The notes below the pieces were generated by a model. The model ran no database searches and was not told where the DNA came from. It saw only the letters and a list, made by a program, of their open reading frames with translations. From Chlorobiota bacterium (GTDB lineage Bacteria > Bacteroidota > Ignavibacteria > OLB7): a stretch of 64,000 nucleotides of DNA. The position numbers and the translations under genes were made by a program. Below are positions 7,237-64,000 of this stretch, piece after piece (position 1 is the stretch's first letter; each line of letters starts with the position of its first letter). The stretch is taken from NCBI GenBank assembly GCA_016710285.1, contig JADJXR010000001.1, forward strand, positions 3,573,232 to 3,637,231, given 5' to 3'.

Positions 7237-7980
7237 ATGTTCAAACACGCAATAATTGTTGGCGCATCGGCGGGAATTGGGGCCGCGATTGCGCGCCAGC
7301 TTGGGCGCGAAGGGTGCGCCGTTGCCCTGGTGGCGCGGCGCGGCGATGCGGTTAAGGCGATTGCCGCCCAGATCAACGCAGAAGCAAAGCAACCCCTTGC
7401 CCGGGCCTATCAACACGACGTGTTGGATGTTGGCCAGGCCGAGGGATTGTTCCAGGAGATCACCCGCGACATCGGCGGATTGGACCTTATCATCTTTGCC
7501 GCAGGGGCAATGCCGGCGGTCGCGCCGGATGAGTACAACATCGAGAAGGACGCGCTGATTTTGGATGTGAACGTTCGCGGCGCGTTTGCGTGGCTGAACG
7601 AAGCTGCGCGGCGGTTCCAGCGGGTGGGGCGGGGGACCATTGTTGGCATCTCCTCGATTGCTGGGGACCGCGGGCGGCGCGGCAATCCCGCCTACTGCAC
7701 CAGCAAAGCCGCGTTGAACACGTACTTGGAATCGCTTCGCAATCGGGTGGCGCGGTTTGGGGTGAAGGTGGTGGTGGCCAAGCCAGGGTTTGTGGATACC
7801 GACATGACGAAAGGGATGCCAGGGCTGTTCTGGTTGATCTCGGCCGAGCGGGCAGCGGAGCTTATCCTGAAGGCCGCCAAGCGTGGGAAGAAAACCGCCT
7901 ACATCCCGGCGCGGTGGCGATTTGTTGGGACGGTGATTCGCTTCTTCCCATCGTTCATCTTCCGGCGGTTGAATATCTGA
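7237..7980 (+). CDS. Short-chain dehydrogenase/reductase (SDR) family oxidoreductase
   Basis: Glycine-rich IVGASAGIGAAIA, catalytic Y-x3-K (YCTSKAAL) and the NAG-like motif. Confidence 0.8.
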   Translation: MFKHAIIVGASAGIGAAIARQLGREGCAVALVARRGDAVKAIAAQINAEAKQPLARAYQHDVLDVGQAEGLFQEITRDIGGLDLIIFAAGAMPAVAPDEYNIEKDALILDVNVRGAFAWLNEAARRFQRVGRGTIVGISSIAGDRGRRGNPAYCTSKAALNTYLESLRNRVARFGVKVVVAKPGFVDTDMTKGMPGLFWLISAERAAELILKAAKRGKKTAYIPARWRFVGTVIRFFPSFIFRRLNI

Positions 7981-27611: not shown

Positions 27612-27854
27612 CGCCGGAAAAATACGGTGGAACAAAGGAACGGAGAAAGGGGAGGGATGTAAGGAGAGATATAGGAGGAAGTGGAGTCTATCCCGGGTGT
27701 GATAGGGAATCTCCTTGTTAAACCGCCGCAACGGCTTAACTGTTCTGTGGCGTTCCAAACTATTATCTATCACGTACTTATCGCAACCGCGCAACCGCTG
27801 CACCCGTTGCTTCTTTGCGGAGAGAGTATCCAACCAGAAAACAGGAGAACAACC

Positions 27855-51774: not shown

Positions 51775-51848
51775 GGGGTTATGGCACAGTTGGTTAGCGC
51801 GCTTCCTTGACATGGAAGAGGTCACAGGTTCGAGTCCTGTTAACCCCA
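51775..51848 (+). tRNA. tRNA-Val (anticodon GAC)
   Basis: Acceptor GGGGTTA/TAACCCC, D-arm GCACAGTTGGTTAGCGC, anticodon stem CTTCC/GGAAG with loop TTGACAT, T-arm CAGGTTCGAGTCCTG. Confidence 0.88.
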
Positions 51849-51850
51849 CA

Positions 51851-51892
51851 AACAACGGCGATTCCGCAAATGGAGTCGCCGTTGTTTTTTTT
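51851..51892 (+). terminator. Rho-independent terminator after tRNA-Val
   Basis: AACGGCGA-TTCCGCAAATGGAG-TCGCCGTT stem followed by T8. Confidence 0.7.
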
Positions 51893-51962
51893 GATGGTGG
51901 AATCATTCTTTCCGCTGTGGAAGGGGGAAGGAATGCGTAATCTTTCCGGTATCCAAGCCGAT

Positions 51963-52875
51963 ATCATCAAGAAGGTAGCCGCCCCGACCTCCGTCGGGAT
52001 TGATAAAAGGTCTTTAGCCTTCGGTGTTCAGGCCGCGTTGGCTCCGTGCGTTGCTCCCCCTCTTGGGAGGGGCTGGGGGGTGGGTTTGGGGACACCCGCG
52101 AACCGGGTGTTGCTTTCCCGAATCTCAGGATCAGAAACTTCCCGTGCCACCGCAACCCCCGCGCCCTGCATTGCTTCCCCCGAACCCACCCCGCCCTATC
52201 GGGCACCCCTCCGTTGGAGGGGGACTACTTGTGAGGGTTCGGAGAAAACTCGCGGACGGGCTTGTGGGCGGCTCCCCCTCTTGGGAGGGGGCTAGGGGGT
52301 GGGTTTGGGGACACCCGCGAACCGAGCGTTGCTTTCCGAATCTCAGGATCAGGCAGGGCGGGGTAGTCGCAGGTCTTTAGCCTGCGCGGGGACACCCGCG
52401 AACCGGGCATTGCTTCCCGAATCTCAGGATCAGAAACTTCCCGTGCCACTGCAACCCCCGCGCCCTGCATTGCTTCCCCCGAACCCACCCCGCCCTATCG
52501 GGCACCCCTCCGTTGGAGGGGGACTACTTGTGAGGGTTCGGAGAAAACTCGCGGACGGGCTTGTGGGCGGCTCCCCCTCTTGGGAGGGGGCTAGGGGGTG
52601 GGTTTGGGGACACCCGCGAACCGAGCGTTGCTTTCCGAATCTCAGGATCAGGCAGGGCGGGGTAGTCGCAGGTCTTTAGCCTGCGCGGGGACACCCGCGA
52701 ACCGGGCATTGCTTCCCGAATCTCAGGATCAGAAACTTCCCGTGCCACTGCAACCCCCGCGCCCTGCATTGCTTCCCCCGAACCCACCCCGCCCTATCGG
52801 GCACCCCTCCGTTGGAGGGGGACTACTTGTGAGGGTTCGGAGAAAACTCGCGGGCGGGCTTTGTCAGACTTTCAG
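51963..52875. repeat. One family-1 partial unit followed by about 2.8 tandem copies of a roughly 299-bp composite GC-rich repeat
   Basis: Exact 299-bp periodicity: identical ORFs 52225..52488 and 52524..52787, and 52299..52679 versus 52598..52888. Internal palindromes CCCCTCTTGGGAGGGGG and CCCCTCCGTTGGAGGGGG. Twice-per-unit motif GGGGACACCCGCGAACCG...TCCGAATCTCAGGATCAG. Also contains GCAGGTCTTTAGCCTGC. Confidence 0.8.
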
Positions 52876-53502
52876 TTTCAAAAAATAAAGGTCGTTGATG
52901 TTATCCCACAAAAAAACATGGTCTTGTTTAAGTGAAAGGTCTGGTCCGTATGGTCTTTCTGTTTTATACCGTAGGATAGTTCCTGATTTATATTCTTTGC
53001 CGTGTCGAAAATCAAAATCTGATGTGTCTGGCGAATAGTTGCCCTGGTTGTAATAATGTGAATGATCTGTTGCAAGAATAAAATAGCAAAGGTCAATGCC
53101 ATGATCTTTGTATAATTCAAGGTTTGAAATGTCCTTGAATACATCATAACGATTATTAGGTTCTCGGTGATTCTCTTTCTTGAAAAACTTTAGTTCAAAA
53201 GCTGCTTTCGTTACAGTGCTATTGTCTTGGTAGCTTATCAGTATATCCACTCTTGCTCTGTCGGATTTGCTTTTTATGCTTGCTTCGTTGAGTGAAACGT
53301 ATGTCTCGAATTCAAGGTGAAATTTGTCAGCAAGTCTAAATTCATACAACCGCCCCAAAGTTTTTAGGATGTGTCCAAATTCAAGTTGAAAAGCATTTTC
53401 ATTTCTTGCTGTCAGCCCGCCAAAAGCAAGTTTATGAGTCAGGAGCTTGTATGCTGTCTCAATAATTTCTTCTGTCAGTCTAATTTGGTTTTCTTTTAGC
53501 AT
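52864..53502 (-). CDS. Hypothetical protein with a PD-(D/E)xK-like motif
   Basis: Low-GC codon usage. Segments FQLEFGHIL ... RVDILISYQDNSTVTKAAFELKFFK fit an E...D...ExK restriction-endonuclease-like pattern. Confidence 0.35.
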   Translation of the reverse strand: MLKENQIRLTEEIIETAYKLLTHKLAFGGLTARNENAFQLEFGHILKTLGRLYEFRLADKFHLEFETYVSLNEASIKSKSDRARVDILISYQDNSTVTKAAFELKFFKKENHREPNNRYDVFKDISNLELYKDHGIDLCYFILATDHSHYYNQGNYSPDTSDFDFRHGKEYKSGTILRYKTERPYGPDLSLKQDHVFLWDNINDLYFLKLKV

Positions 53503-53597
53503 TTATCAGGACGATGGTGCTTTATTCTCAACGCAAATGCGTTTTTTATTTTCAAGAACAGCAAGTGAGAGAAGGTCTTTAGTCTTCGGTTGTAAAA

Positions 53598-54089
53598 TCA
53601 GACCCCATGGTTAGCAACATTGTTTGTGATTTCGCTGGGGAGCAAGCTGTGCAAGTCAAACAACGGGAGGATAAGATTGGCGAAAGGAGTATTGGCAAGT
53701 TTGCTAAGTAGCAAACCTCGTGTGGTTCCTACAGATGCGCTGGTCATCGTCGCAGCAATCCATCCGGGAATTTCAATATTTCCCCCTGATTCCTTTAGGC
53801 CATGGATCTGATACTTGGAATTGGTTGTGATTGATGCCAGCATCCCTGATTTTGATTTTTTGTGTCCTTCCCATGAAATTTCTACAGAGATGATGAGCGT
53901 GGATGTCGCACCAGTAGCAGCATTAATACTACGCCGCACAGTGATGGCATAATGAATTCCACTGATCTCAGCTGGATCCGGATTGGAAATCTCGAATGTC
54001 TCAACGGAGCAGTCAGCAAAAACAAGGCCGATTGGGGGCGCGGCGGGGGGAGCATCTCCATTTTTAGAGCGAGAGTTTTTCTTGGCCAT
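53598..54089 (-). CDS. Hypothetical protein (163 aa), no recognisable domain
   Basis: ORF in the AT-rich island, co-directional with the TA genes. Low-complexity N-terminus. Confidence 0.3.
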   Translation of the reverse strand: MAKKNSRSKNGDAPPAAPPIGLVFADCSVETFEISNPDPAEISGIHYAITVRRSINAATGATSTLIISVEISWEGHKKSKSGMLASITTNSKYQIHGLKESGGNIEIPGWIAATMTSASVGTTRGLLLSKLANTPFANLILPLFDLHSLLPSEITNNVANHGV

Positions 54090-54564
54090 AGCTCTGCGAT
54101 TTTTGAGTTTTTGAAGAGATCATTTCGTTAGAATTATTAACGACAAGGGTTCCGAACTCATTGACGCTTTGTGAGCTTAGATGGAATGATTCAGAAGAAG
54201 AGAGCGGGGTGTTTGTCTTCCCGTAGGTGATAATGGTGGTTATGGAGCCATCACTATTTTTTAGTTTTTCAATCTGCCTGGTAAACGCTGTTGAGGCCAC
54301 GGCTTCGGGGAAATTTTGAGCTACTTCCAGCAACCGCCGCGCCGGTCCTTTTGGGCGGCGGCGGCCTTGTTCCCAGCCTTCAAGGGTGCGCTGGCTAATG
54401 CCCAGCATCAGCGCAAATTTTGCTTGGGACATCCCCATTTTGTTCCGAATCTCCTTCGCATCAGGAATTTGGTAGTAGGTAATGCGCGATGGCTGCTTTT
54501 TGCCTGCGCGTATCTCCTGCAAGTCGGAAAGTGCATGTTCCAACGATGTCAATAAGCTATCCAT
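54064..54564 (-). CDS. HTH (XRE-like) antitoxin, HigA-2/NadS-like
   Basis: IRNKMGMSQAKFALMLGISQRTLEGWEQGRRRPKGPARRLLEVAQNFPE matches antitoxins paired with Gp49/HigB-2-type toxins. It overlaps the toxin-like ORF by 8 nt. Confidence 0.6.
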   Translation of the reverse strand: MDSLLTSLEHALSDLQEIRAGKKQPSRITYYQIPDAKEIRNKMGMSQAKFALMLGISQRTLEGWEQGRRRPKGPARRLLEVAQNFPEAVASTAFTRQIEKLKNSDGSITTIITYGKTNTPLSSSESFHLSSQSVNEFGTLVVNNSNEMISSKTQKSQSYGQEKLSL

Positions 54565-62124: not shown

Positions 62125-62144
62125 TCGTCGTGCATTGGCAGTTC

Positions 62145-62185
62145 AACGGGGCTACGGTCAGCAACCGTAGCCCCGTTGTATTGTG
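62145..62185 (+). terminator. Rho-independent terminator after the T9SS cargo gene
   Basis: AACGGGGCTACGG-TCAGCAA-CCGTAGCCCCGTT followed by a T-rich GTATTGTG. Confidence 0.5.
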
Positions 62186-62327
62186 AAGAGTTTATGTGTA
62201 CGATTCTCGGATGTTGTTGTAAAATCAAACAGCCATCAGATGAAAAAAAATCAACAGAAAACGCCGAAATTTGCTTAAAAAGAAGGATTCTGGATTGTCA
62301 AAAACTTCACCAGGGGTTAAAAAATCG

Positions 62328-62359
62328 TTGACAACAGGATTTCGGCCATAGTAGTTTTG
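62328..62359 (+). promoter_or_regulatory. Bacteroidota-type sigma-A-like promoter motif (TTG ... TAnnTTTG)
   Basis: TTGACAACAGGATTTCGGCCATAG-TAGTTTTG, with 21 nt between TTG and the -7 box. This is a motif match only. Confidence 0.2.
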
Positions 62360-62885
62360 TATGCTAAACGCACGAGCAAGAAACCACGTTAGTGGATGAT
62401 GAGGCTGGGAATTGGGGCAACTGGATATCGAATGTGTGGCTGAAGGCTTGGGGATACTGGAAGAATCCCCAATTTTTCGCGAAAATTGCAACACCGCCAT
62501 CCCATCCCTTCGTTGTTTCTTCGACTTTATCAAAATGACAGAGGCAGGATTGCGCTGCTAAATCACAGCGTACTCTTGTGAAGAATGGGGGGCTACGGCG
62601 TAGATATGGGCGATAATCAGCCACAATGGATGGCACAATGGGGAGCGAAAAGTAGTAGAACAGAAAGTCTGAGACACTTCTTTTCAAAAGCCGACAAGGT
62701 CTATACTTGGGTGGTCGAAATCCAGATTACAAGCATGGCACGGTAATTGATGTGATCTACGTGCAAGTCTTTACTGGGCTTGTTCAAGACGCACAACATC
62801 AATGGGCAATGCCAGTAGAAGAAGCGGCCCTCTGTCTCGGCAGCGTATGGCACCCATCGTAAGAAACAGACGGGAGAGCGATTAA

Positions 62886-63698
62886 GTGAACGTTTTCAAA
62901 CTGCATAGCTGGCCAACTCCTGTATTGGTTCTGCTATCACTAATGGTCGGAACAGTGGCGTTTGCCCAGACTGCTCAAACTGCTCGTTTGGGGTCGGGAA
63001 CGGAAGCACAGGCAGAGAATCCAACGTTATCAACCCAACGTTCGGGCATCCAATTGATGGGGGTTACGCCACCATCACCAGGGGTAAGCACTGCACCGAT
63101 GGTTGATATTTATGGGCACATGGGGGTTGGAACGCTGCAACCGGATATTTCCGCAGCAATTGACATTTCATCGGCTCATGCAGGGCTGCTGATCCCGCGA
63201 TTGACGCAAGCGCAACGGGACTCTATCTATCTCCCTGCAACAACCCTGCTGATCTTTAATCAGACGTCGTTCCAGTTTGAGTACAACGACAGCACGCCGG
63301 TAAACCCACATTGGGTTCCGTTTCTAAACGGGCATTCCATTATCGGGTTCAACATGATTGGAACCGGAACAAATCAAGGGCAAACCTTGAATGTGGGGAA
63401 TGGATCGGTGCTTCAGCCAACTGGCACGGGGATTGTAATTGCTAACCAAATCAATGGGGCAGGGGCGAACAAGTTTGCTGGCGCAATACCGATCCCCGAC
63501 GGAACCACGGATCTTGACATCGCATACACGGGGCTTCAAGCAAATGCAGTGGTTGTGGTCTCCATCAGCGACCCAACGTTTCCAGGGGTGGTGACAACAA
63601 CCACCGAAAAAAATCCTGGAATTGGATTTACGGTTCACTTTGCAAGCCCATACCCGGGAACAACCGGAACCCTTGATTACGTGGTGATTAACCCGTAA
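62886..63698 (+). CDS. Hypothetical secreted protein
   Basis: Signal peptide MNVFKLHSWPTPVLVLLSLMVGTVAFAQ. Thr/Gly-rich beta-type sequence. Lower GC (about 50%) than the window average. Confidence 0.35.
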   Translation: MNVFKLHSWPTPVLVLLSLMVGTVAFAQTAQTARLGSGTEAQAENPTLSTQRSGIQLMGVTPPSPGVSTAPMVDIYGHMGVGTLQPDISAAIDISSAHAGLLIPRLTQAQRDSIYLPATTLLIFNQTSFQFEYNDSTPVNPHWVPFLNGHSIIGFNMIGTGTNQGQTLNVGNGSVLQPTGTGIVIANQINGAGANKFAGAIPIPDGTTDLDIAYTGLQANAVVVVSISDPTFPGVVTTTTEKNPGIGFTVHFASPYPGTTGTLDYVVINP

Positions 63699-63732
63699 TC
63701 ATCCTTTGAAAATTCTGTGAGGTACAGGCACC

Positions 63733-63973
63733 TGAATTGGCCGTTGAGGAGCAGTCAATTCAACACAGCAACGGAAGCCTAACCGTTCGCCAAAAAATGG
63801 CACAGGGTTTGAGGAAGCCCTACCAACAAGTGCATGAGCGGTGGTAATGTTGAGGAGCATTACCACCGCCAATGCCCGACGAATCTTGGTACGCGTCGCA
63901 CAGAAAACACCAAGAATGCAAAGGGGTTTTGAGGAAGCCCCAACGCACACCGCGATTTGGTTGAGGAGCCAAA
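63733..63973. ncRNA. Candidate structured RNA: five consecutive hairpins with loops UUGAGGAG or UUUGAGGAAG (strand undetermined, runs to the window end)
   Basis: Hairpins at about 63733-63765, 63804-63821 (AGGG-TTTGAGGAAG-CCCT), 63838-63869 (GCGGTGGTAATG-TTGAGGAG-CATTACCACCGC), 63923-63941 (GGGG-TTTTGAGGAAG-CCCC) and 63956-63973 (TTTGG-TTGAGGAG-CCAAA). Confidence 0.3.
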
Positions 63974-64000
63974 CAAAGTGTGCACGACGGAACCGGTGAT

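Follow-up and report, generated by a model that had tools for sequence, protein, structure and literature searches.

Several bacterial regulatory systems display GGA or Shine–Dalgarno (SD)-like motifs in mRNA leaders or in small RNAs (sRNAs). They offer the closest comparisons for the element described here, a hairpin array at 63733-63973 of a 64,000-nt stretch of DNA from a Chlorobiota bacterium (GenBank assembly GCA_016710285.1, contig JADJXR010000001.1, positions 3,573,232 to 3,637,231 of the forward strand; this whole stretch is called the window, and positions are counted from its first letter). The array occupies the leader of a gene for a 250 amino acid (aa) long tail-fibre-like protein, here called the fibre gene. 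In CsrA-controlled leaders, such as those of Escherichia coli pgaA and glgC, Bacillus subtilis hag and Campylobacter jejuni flaA, several GGA motifs are spread along an extended 5' leader; hairpin loops display those further upstream, the final motif overlaps the SD, and the mRNA may encode a secreted filament subunit. The Csr/Rsm sponge sRNAs (CsrB, CsrC and RsmX/Y/Z) are arrays of stem-loops that each show GGA and bind their partner in a multivalent manner. The STAB-SD, a stabiliser of Bacillus mRNAs reportedly described by Agaisse and Lereclus in 1996, and similar 5' stabilisers (B. thuringiensis cry3A; B. subtilis hbs and aprE) place an SD-like site without a start codon far upstream in the 5' untranslated region (UTR) of a very highly expressed gene, where binding of the 30S subunit protects the mRNA. 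In the icaR 5'/3'-UTR pairing of Staphylococcus aureus and in RNAIII, RsaE and CcsR, SD-like purines face anti-SD-like pyrimidines that are located elsewhere. Finally, the SD-dependent autoregulation of rpsU in Flavobacteriia, which responds to ribosomes lacking bS21, uses a rare, strong and conserved SD where SDs are otherwise unused.

Compared with these systems, the locus shows both likenesses and differences. As in a CsrA-controlled leader, at least two GGA sites are present, one upstream in a loop (UUGAGGAGG, in the last hairpin h7) and one on the SD itself (UUAGGAGGU). Unlike such leaders, the array repeats a regular module three times and totals eight sites, with nearly identical loops that are SD-like past the GGA; in addition, the host genome is SD-poor, no CsrA is known for this lineage, and none was detected in the window or the fetched loci. 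Different from the sponge sRNAs, the leader has no terminator of its own, runs into an SD and an AUG and matches no Rfam model. The loops are SD-like, judged against a generic anti-SD, and lie in a 5' UTR without a start codon at initiation distance, as a STAB-SD does; however, the latter consists of one unstructured site close to the 5' end in SD-rich Firmicutes that contain RNase J, whereas seven loop sites are present here in an SD-poor bacterium. A CU-rich block downstream of the fibre gene recalls icaR, RNAIII, RsaE and CcsR, but in our array the SD-like side is borne by repeated loops, and the pairing with the CU block is putative. For the CcsR/cuckoo sRNAs (RF02791), the score is below the gathering threshold and the structure is not on the strand with CCUCCUCCC loops. 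The rpsU system concerns a different gene without a hairpin array, and anti-SD sequestration in the host lineage of our element is uncertain. The element is an undescribed, covariation-supported, cis-acting array of SD/GGA-displaying hairpins that is not in Rfam 15.

Structure and conservation of the leader

The array is part of a non-coding spacer of about 430 nt between a gene for a 270 aa secreted protein and the fibre gene. Its first 302 nt, the 5' two-thirds, lie at 63699-64000 on the plus strand, and the remainder was read from near-identical contigs (L001 6858-6981), with the AUG of the fibre gene falling at about 64125 in window numbering by offset. The identical 270 aa protein is encoded on 20 public contigs. 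L001, L003 and L004 differ from the last 350 nt of the window solely by A7 instead of A6 at 63792-63797, which reflects strain variation or an error in sequencing the homopolymer. Together, the observations firmly identify the spacer as a non-coding leader that is read from the plus strand, is structured and runs into the initiation site of the fibre gene; it is neither a free sRNA nor a minus-strand anti-SD RNA.

Within the array, TTGAGGAG is found at 63744, 63850 and 63961, and TTGAGGAAG at 63809 and 63929. The whole window contains six matches to TTGAGGAG, compared with 1.76 expected and a number reached in none of 100 shuffles, and three matches to TTGAGGAAG (0.45 expected). One half of the former and two thirds of the latter fall into the 240-nt stretch, a density that is not due to chance. 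An inverted repeat flanks each of the five motifs, giving the hairpins h1 to h5. When both strands of the window were scanned, no second cluster of stems of at least 4 bp with GAGGA in the loop was found, and stems of 9-13 bp with a GAGGA loop were confined to this cluster. The 302 nt of leader in the window have a predicted fold energy of -111.6 kcal/mol, and folding relative to dinucleotide shuffles gave z = -5.4 for the plus strand and z = -3.2 for the minus strand.

All five hairpins lie on the plus strand and carry either UUGAGGAG or UU(U)GAGGAAG as loop. The type A hairpin h1 (63733-63762) has a 9-bp stem with further pairs across a small internal loop, a loop UUGAGGAG at 63744-63751, and stem pairs that change from C-G to U-A and from G-C to C-G. 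It is followed by the type B hairpin h2 (63804-63821; AGGG-UUUGAGGAAG-CCCU), the loop of which is invariant. The second type A hairpin, h3, has a core of 12 bp at 63838-63869, extended to 63832-63875, with the loop UUGAGGAG at 63850-63857; its core stem comprises 12-14 bp, with both-side changes at four pairs. The type B hairpin h4 (63923-63941) reads GGGG-UUUUGAGGAAG-CCCC, and in one sub-clade its loop is UUAAGGAGG, a full SD. In h5, again of type A (63945-63983), an inner stem at 63956-63973 encloses the loop UUGAGGAG (63961-63968), and GCACAC pairs with GUGUGC in an outer helix. In the ViennaRNA fold, additional U-A and U.G pairs narrow every loop to a GAGG tetraloop.

Plus-strand hairpins without the GAGGA motif are interspersed among the five. 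Spacer hairpin x1 (63770-63787; AACGG-AAGCCUAA-CCGUU) contains one covarying pair, and x3 (63884-63915) places UCUUGGU...ACCAAGA inside CGACG..CGUCG. The start of x4 (GACGGA-ACCGGUGA-UCCGUC) lies at 63986-64000, where it is cut by the window end; the region is complete at L001 6843-6882. The x4 loop is complementary to UCACCGG 11 nt downstream, and judged from this complementarity the two could form an H-type pseudoknot or an alternative helix. In this loop pairing, one pair covaries from G-C to A-U in five of 13 sequences.

Beyond the window end, L001 supplies two further plus-strand GAGGA hairpins, so that the whole spacer contains seven. The hairpin h6 reads GAGUU-AAGAGGA-AACUC, and the A-type hairpin h7 reads GGGCC-UUGAGGAG-GGUUC, a stem that requires two G.U pairs. 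The spacer terminates in a canonical SD, UUAGGAGGU-N7-AUG, which is invariant or nearly so. The ribosome-binding site reads CCUUAGGAGGUACAGUCC-AUG, with 8 nt from GGAGG to the start codon; h7 ends about 20 nt before the SD, and its loop lies 34 nt upstream of it. At the very start of the leader, a conserved block (GUGAGGUACAGG; 63717-63728, plus strand) nearly repeats the SD context (GGAGGUACAGUCC; L001 6969-6981), and both copies contain GAGGUACAG. In the predicted structure, the 5' block pairs with ACCUUA just 5' of the SD and would close the whole domain; the pairing is invariant and thus shows no covariation.

The preliminary description of this DNA, made from the window sequence alone, had proposed five stem-loops with different stems and shared loops of two kinds (three and two copies), and the motif positions and inverted repeats bear this out. 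It was right about the five hairpins, but h1 holds a mismatch or bulge and the common loop is better written as the 8-nt UUGAGGAR. It was also correct that the element runs off the window, as h6 and h7 demonstrate.

Orthologues of the 250 aa protein were found at 72-89% identity, with loci from genome, metagenome and assembly collections. From these loci came 14 distinct spacers, and the alignment comprises 13 of them (identity of the downstream protein, 72-100%). In this alignment, the stems vary, while the seven GAGGA loops and the SD show little or no change. The RNAalifold structure contains 104 pairs, and 97.6% of the cells are standard pairs. Both-side changes are seen at eight pairs (18 cells), and none of 500 column shuffles attained the observed values. 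In a control in which the partners were slid by 1-3 columns, pairing dropped to 31-51%. When the same pairs are read on the minus strand, only 85.3% of the cells are standard because 172 cells are G.U on the plus strand, where several helices shift between G-C, G.U and A-U; the invariant G.U pairs of h7 likewise function on the plus strand only. These counts indicate that the RNA is made from the plus strand and that its loops read GAGGA and not CUCCUC.

Open reading frames (ORFs) that overlap the spacer are short (at most 66 aa). Together with alignment indels that are not multiples of three and with compensating stem changes, they rule out a coding region; a conserved small ORF was not found, and no ATG, GTG or TTG is present 5-10 nt past the loops inspected. 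A consensus scan of the operon revealed neither a plus-strand terminator nor a sigma-70-type promoter within the spacer. Rfam 15 was searched with the region, the extended locus and the whole window, at E-values up to 5-10 and at gathering thresholds, and no Csr/Rsm match was obtained; the returns were two tRNAs and a sub-threshold minus-strand match to CcsR1 (RF02791; E = 0.0024, 24.9 bits compared with a gathering threshold of 65.3). In L053, the locus of a 46%-identical orthologue, the spacer is only about 100-140 nt long, depending on the start codon chosen, and contains neither the hairpins nor the SD. The element was found in only one narrow clade of metagenome-assembled genomes with the source label 'Chlorobi bacterium' (one is labelled Armatimonadota).

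The suspicion of selection on structure voiced in the preliminary description is therefore sustained, since the loops are retained across orthologous loci and changes in the stems are compensated, and so is its plus-strand reading of the loops as GGA/GAGG, on the strength of 97.6% as against 85.3% standard pairs. Two circumstances that it had named as fatal, a lack of loop conservation in orthologous loci and a position inside a coding gene once flanking sequence was added, were checked on orthologous and neighbouring contigs: the loops are conserved and the spacer is non-coding. Its minus-strand alternative, in which CUCCUC loops mimic an anti-SD, fails on the G.U counts, with the sub-threshold CcsR1 match as the sole Rfam family on that strand. 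The idea of a free-standing sRNA is not supported either, because the spacer has no plus-strand terminator or sigma-70-type promoter and the array continues into the SD and AUG.

Likeness of the loops to the ribosome-binding site

When the leader was cut at its A-type hairpins and the pieces were aligned, three tandem modules of 103-114 nt were obtained. Each of them consists of an A hairpin (GUUGAGGAGC; loop UUGAGGAG), a CGACGGAA...CCGUCG hairpin (x1 in module 1, x3 in module 2), an A-rich linker and a B hairpin with the loop UUUGAGGAAG, which reads AAGAGGAAA in module 3; h7 and the SD make up a terminal half-module. The mean column identity between modules is only about 49%, and the loops are nonetheless the same, which argues for selection on the loops and not for recent duplication. 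All eight sites, i.e. the seven loops and the unstructured SD, share a UU prefix that is followed by a purine run around AGGA, and h7 (CCUUGAGGAGG) almost duplicates the SD context (CCUUAGGAGG). The likeness to an SD extends past the bare GGA, with AGGAG in four loops, GAGGAGG in h7 and AAGGAGG in h4 of one sub-clade. On this sequence basis, the loops are best described as copies of the fibre gene's own ribosome-binding site.

Duplex energies calculated with a generic anti-SD, which may not be that of the host, are -5.6 to -7.8 kcal/mol for the loops, -12.0 kcal/mol for h7 and -11.6 kcal/mol for the SD, compared with a mean of -2.5 kcal/mol for random 10-mers. The energies of the loop/anti-SD duplexes are within the range expected of working SDs.

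Several kinds of repeat were considered as the source of the array and rejected. TRF returned no tandem repeat, and the modules are too diverged for one. A dispersed repeat of the REP, BIME or MITE type does not fit either, as the 64 kb contain no other cluster and the copies differ in their stems and have the loops alone in common. In viral contigs, a three-fold TTGAGGAR pattern was found at 120 or more loci, but all those that passed the hairpin filter were short-period tandem repeats. Their periods are mostly multiples of three, they are probably coding, and their 'stems' are artefacts of the repeats.

Candidate readers of the loops

As a tentative reading, to which we assign a probability of roughly 0.4, we propose that the element is a cis-acting leader (5' UTR or intercistronic spacer) whose loops are SD decoys that are read by the anti-SD of the 30S subunit and raise fibre output. 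As seven copies of the SD are displayed, the factor that reads the SD should also read the loops. The seven loops would thus serve as decoy or docking copies for any such factor, and the anti-SD tail of the 30S subunit would be the reader. The array would capture 30S subunits and hold them beside the true start as standby sites, while together with its stable stems it would shield a long-lived mRNA. The fibre subunit would thereby be made in very large amounts, with lower expression of the upstream gene of the same operon. We infer the 30S subunit as ligand, in preference to a protein or another RNA, as well as the combined activation and stabilisation and the ends of the transcript. By analogy, ribosome standby sites and the STAB-SD of Bacillus mRNAs would be the closest precedents.

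The 30S subunit is favoured because conservation passes beyond GGA into the SD consensus (AGGAG, GAGGAGG, AAGGAGG), because the duplex energies lie in the range expected of working SDs, and because SD and array go together and SDs are otherwise unused in this genome; in L053, where the hairpins are missing, the SD is missing too. The fibre gene furthermore looks built for high output, and CsrA turned up neither in the window nor in the fetched loci nor in surveyed gut Bacteroidetes.

Several points weigh against this reading. A seven-fold SD array is not known to us from any other system. Complementarity of the B-type loops and of h6 to the anti-SD spans 4-5 nt only, and the closure to a GAGG tetraloop pairs the A of GGA, which means that the sites must open before binding. 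The geometry of two-loop modules and a last unit of hairpin plus SD suits a dimeric GGA-binding protein at least as well. For the transcript ends, the shape of one contig of 1,261 nt, which starts 22 nt past the upstream stop codon, gives a weak, suggestive hint. L075 looks transcript-shaped, but L024 and L076 begin and end at arbitrary places, and contig shapes are therefore weak evidence for transcript ends. Finally, ribosomes of the class Bacteroidia keep their anti-SD sequestered and disregard SD sequences (PMC7797042, PMC13000453), which may or may not apply to the Chlorobi-labelled lineage of the host.

In a close rival to this reading, which is nearly as likely, the leader is a multivalent platform for a GGA/AGGA-specific protein, either CsrA-like or an Rbp of the RNA recognition motif (RRM) type of the Bacteroidota/Chlorobi group. 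Dimers of this protein would link two loops at a time, and also the last hairpin to the SD, and would repress or time fibre translation as CsrA does on the hag, flaA, glgC and pgaA leaders. CsrA sites are characterised by GGA in hairpin loops, and AGGA is present in all eight sites; five of the eight, however, read GGAG, so that conservation reaches the SD consensus, which is further than CsrA needs. CsrA bridges sites over a limited range of spacings, and the loop-to-loop spacings of 32-79 nt are partly inside this range. The repeating unit is a two-loop module in three copies, the last module combines a hairpin with an SD 34 nt further on, as in the classic repressor geometry, and the cargo is a secreted filament-like subunit, as with flagellin. 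RbpB (RRM-1) of Bacteroides thetaiotaomicron bound AGGA-containing GUAGGAUA repeats in vitro. On the other hand, tblastn with CsrA of E. coli and B. subtilis as queries identified no csrA gene in the 64 kb window or the fetched loci, Rfam contains no matching Csr/Rsm family, and the strong codon bias suggests a gene that is built for high output. In a survey of 313 human gut genomes, a CsrA homologue was present in no Bacteroidetes genome of the set (bioRxiv 10.1101/2021.04.27.441718).

An RNA partner is a more doubtful reader. A pyrimidine block (AUUUCCUCCUCUUCCCUUGAUGACGG; L001 7866-7890, outside the window and about 135 nt past the stop codon of the fibre gene) contains an invariant UUUCCUCCUCUUCCC, and the loops could pair with the invariant AUUUCCUCCUCUUCCCUU, predicted to be single-stranded, of this anti-SD-like block, either as 3' UTR of the fibre gene or as 5' UTR of the next gene, in a 5'/3'-UTR or sponge-type interaction like that of S. 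aureus icaR. Such pairing has precedents (PMC3868564, PMC5737220). The block shows no variation in any of the orthologous loci, whereas its flanks differ; it is predicted to lie unpaired and, like the hairpins and the SD, is missing from the distant L053. It offers a perfect 6-7-nt complement to every loop variant (GAGGAG:CUCCUC, GAGGAA:UUCCUC, AAGAGGA:UCCUCUU), with duplex energies of -8.1 to -14.2 kcal/mol that beat the anti-SD for all seven loops. Nevertheless, low-complexity purine and pyrimidine runs readily match by chance, seven loops for one block in cis (7:1) would be an odd regulatory arrangement, the pairing does not account for the UU prefix of the loops, and a long covarying hairpin between the fibre gene and the block renders co-transcription uncertain. 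Similarly doubtful is the proposal that the eight-fold SD array picks a special reader, which might be a sub-population of ribosomes with an exposed anti-SD tail (e.g., ones without bS21) or an anti-SD-mimic RNA such as the UUUCCUCCUCUUCCC block. It is quite improbable that the leader is a passive intercistronic stabiliser or processing structure, in which the stems guard a processed fibre mRNA from nucleases, as in the papBA and puf operons, and the loops have no ligand. The very stable fold, the unlike codon bias of two genes in one operon and the failure to find an internal promoter would suit it, but it explains neither why the loops stay identical while the modules diverge and the stems covary, nor why they copy the SD. 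It is highly improbable that the array acts as an independent sponge sRNA, be it a plus-strand RNA like CsrB/RsmZ or a minus-strand RNA with CUCCUC loops like the CcsR/cuckoo sRNAs. A multi-hairpin array with identical loops and the CcsR1 match would favour this idea, yet this match scores far below the gathering threshold, no terminator precedes the SD, 12% of the pairs are lost on the minus strand, and the G.U pairs of h7 fit the plus strand only.

The hairpin 3' of the fibre gene (L001 ~7779-7836) deserves mention in its own right. It has a purine-rich 5' arm, a pyrimidine-rich 3' arm and several covarying pairs, and it is not a classical terminator because a U-run is lacking. In sequence terms, an alternative pairing of the purine arm with the CU-rich block is conceivable.

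Operon context and implications

The fibre gene (L001 6982-7734, plus strand) encodes a signal peptide and NGGTG repeats. The structure model of its product is poor (pLDDT 61) apart from a C-terminal beta domain, for which only weak matches to phage tailspikes and pyocin fibres were obtained (best E = 0.02). With an effective number of codons (Nc) of 43 at a G+C content at third codon positions (GC3) of 0.55, where about 60 would be expected, it has the strongest composition-independent codon bias among the genes examined. The upstream gene for the 270 aa secreted protein (62886-63698, plus strand; precomputed match to PF26696, PTL_trimer) has a weak bias (Nc 55.7 at GC3 0.51), and this contrast suggests that the fibre gene is probably far more strongly expressed. 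Its product is probably a very abundant surface fibre subunit. The products of the operon are secreted or surface proteins of 877, 228, 270 (PTL_trimer), 250 and 1,118 aa, with weak, sub-threshold matches of the 877 and 228 aa proteins to type IX secretion tails. The surrounding genes (uvrC, a short-chain dehydrogenase and an amino-acid kinase) are chromosomal housekeeping genes.

The 270 aa gene is itself preceded by a 760-nt spacer (62125-62885), which contains the terminator of the 877 aa gene, a classical GC hairpin with a U-run (62139-62183). A conserved promoter-like sequence, TTGACA-N18-TAGTTTTG, is found at 62326-62362 on the plus strand, about 520 nt upstream of the 270 aa gene, and combines a sigma-70-like -35 with a Bacteroidota-type TAnnTTTG element. 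It is the sole good promoter candidate of the operon, although it was found by eye and was not called by the consensus scan, and it implies a leader of about 520 nt for the 270 aa gene as well. In some relatives, GGUACAGG is also present 3' of this site. In one sub-clade, the leader of the PTL_trimer gene contains an eighth hairpin, GCAGCC-UUGAGGAG-GGCUGC (L011 ~1455-1480, L025 ~195-225, and L065); its loop is degenerate in L054 (UUGAGAAGG) and L055 (UUGAAGAAGG), and the hairpin is missing from the window. This patchy presence indicates that the motif can be gained or lost in the other leaders of the operon.

SD sites are scarce in the genome and near background, which is typical of Bacteroidota-like initiation. 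A 4-mer SD core at -17 to -4 is present in 6 of 40 ORFs in the window, compared with 8.5% of random windows, an approximate figure that rests on naive start codons. SD-like exceptions are seen at 27681 (AAGGAG...AGGAGG directly before a GTG) and 41042 (GGGGAGG 16 nt upstream). Elsewhere in the window, a tRNA (51775-51848) is followed up to 54564 by several minus-strand ORFs of unusually low GC3 (0.33-0.54, compared with about 0.70 elsewhere), with an HTH_3 protein at 54064-54564 and no other Pfam matches; this region (51775-54564) may be a small integrated island.

If the 30S subunit or an anti-SD mimic binds the loops, the leader would represent a natural, modular 'SD array' in a setting where SD–anti-SD pairing is nearly unused. 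It would then provide a handle on the remaining role of the conserved anti-SD and on how one mRNA is singled out for very high or gated translation. Selection of a special reader by the eight sites would make it a new kind of ribosome-selective or RNA-titrating leader that is not of the CsrA type. If the loops are instead read by a protein, the array would be a bait for a CsrA-like global regulator in a group without known canonical RNA chaperones. Either way, the element is a candidate entry for RNA family databases, with a limited reach, as it was found only in a narrow clade of uncultured 'Chlorobi bacterium' genomes.

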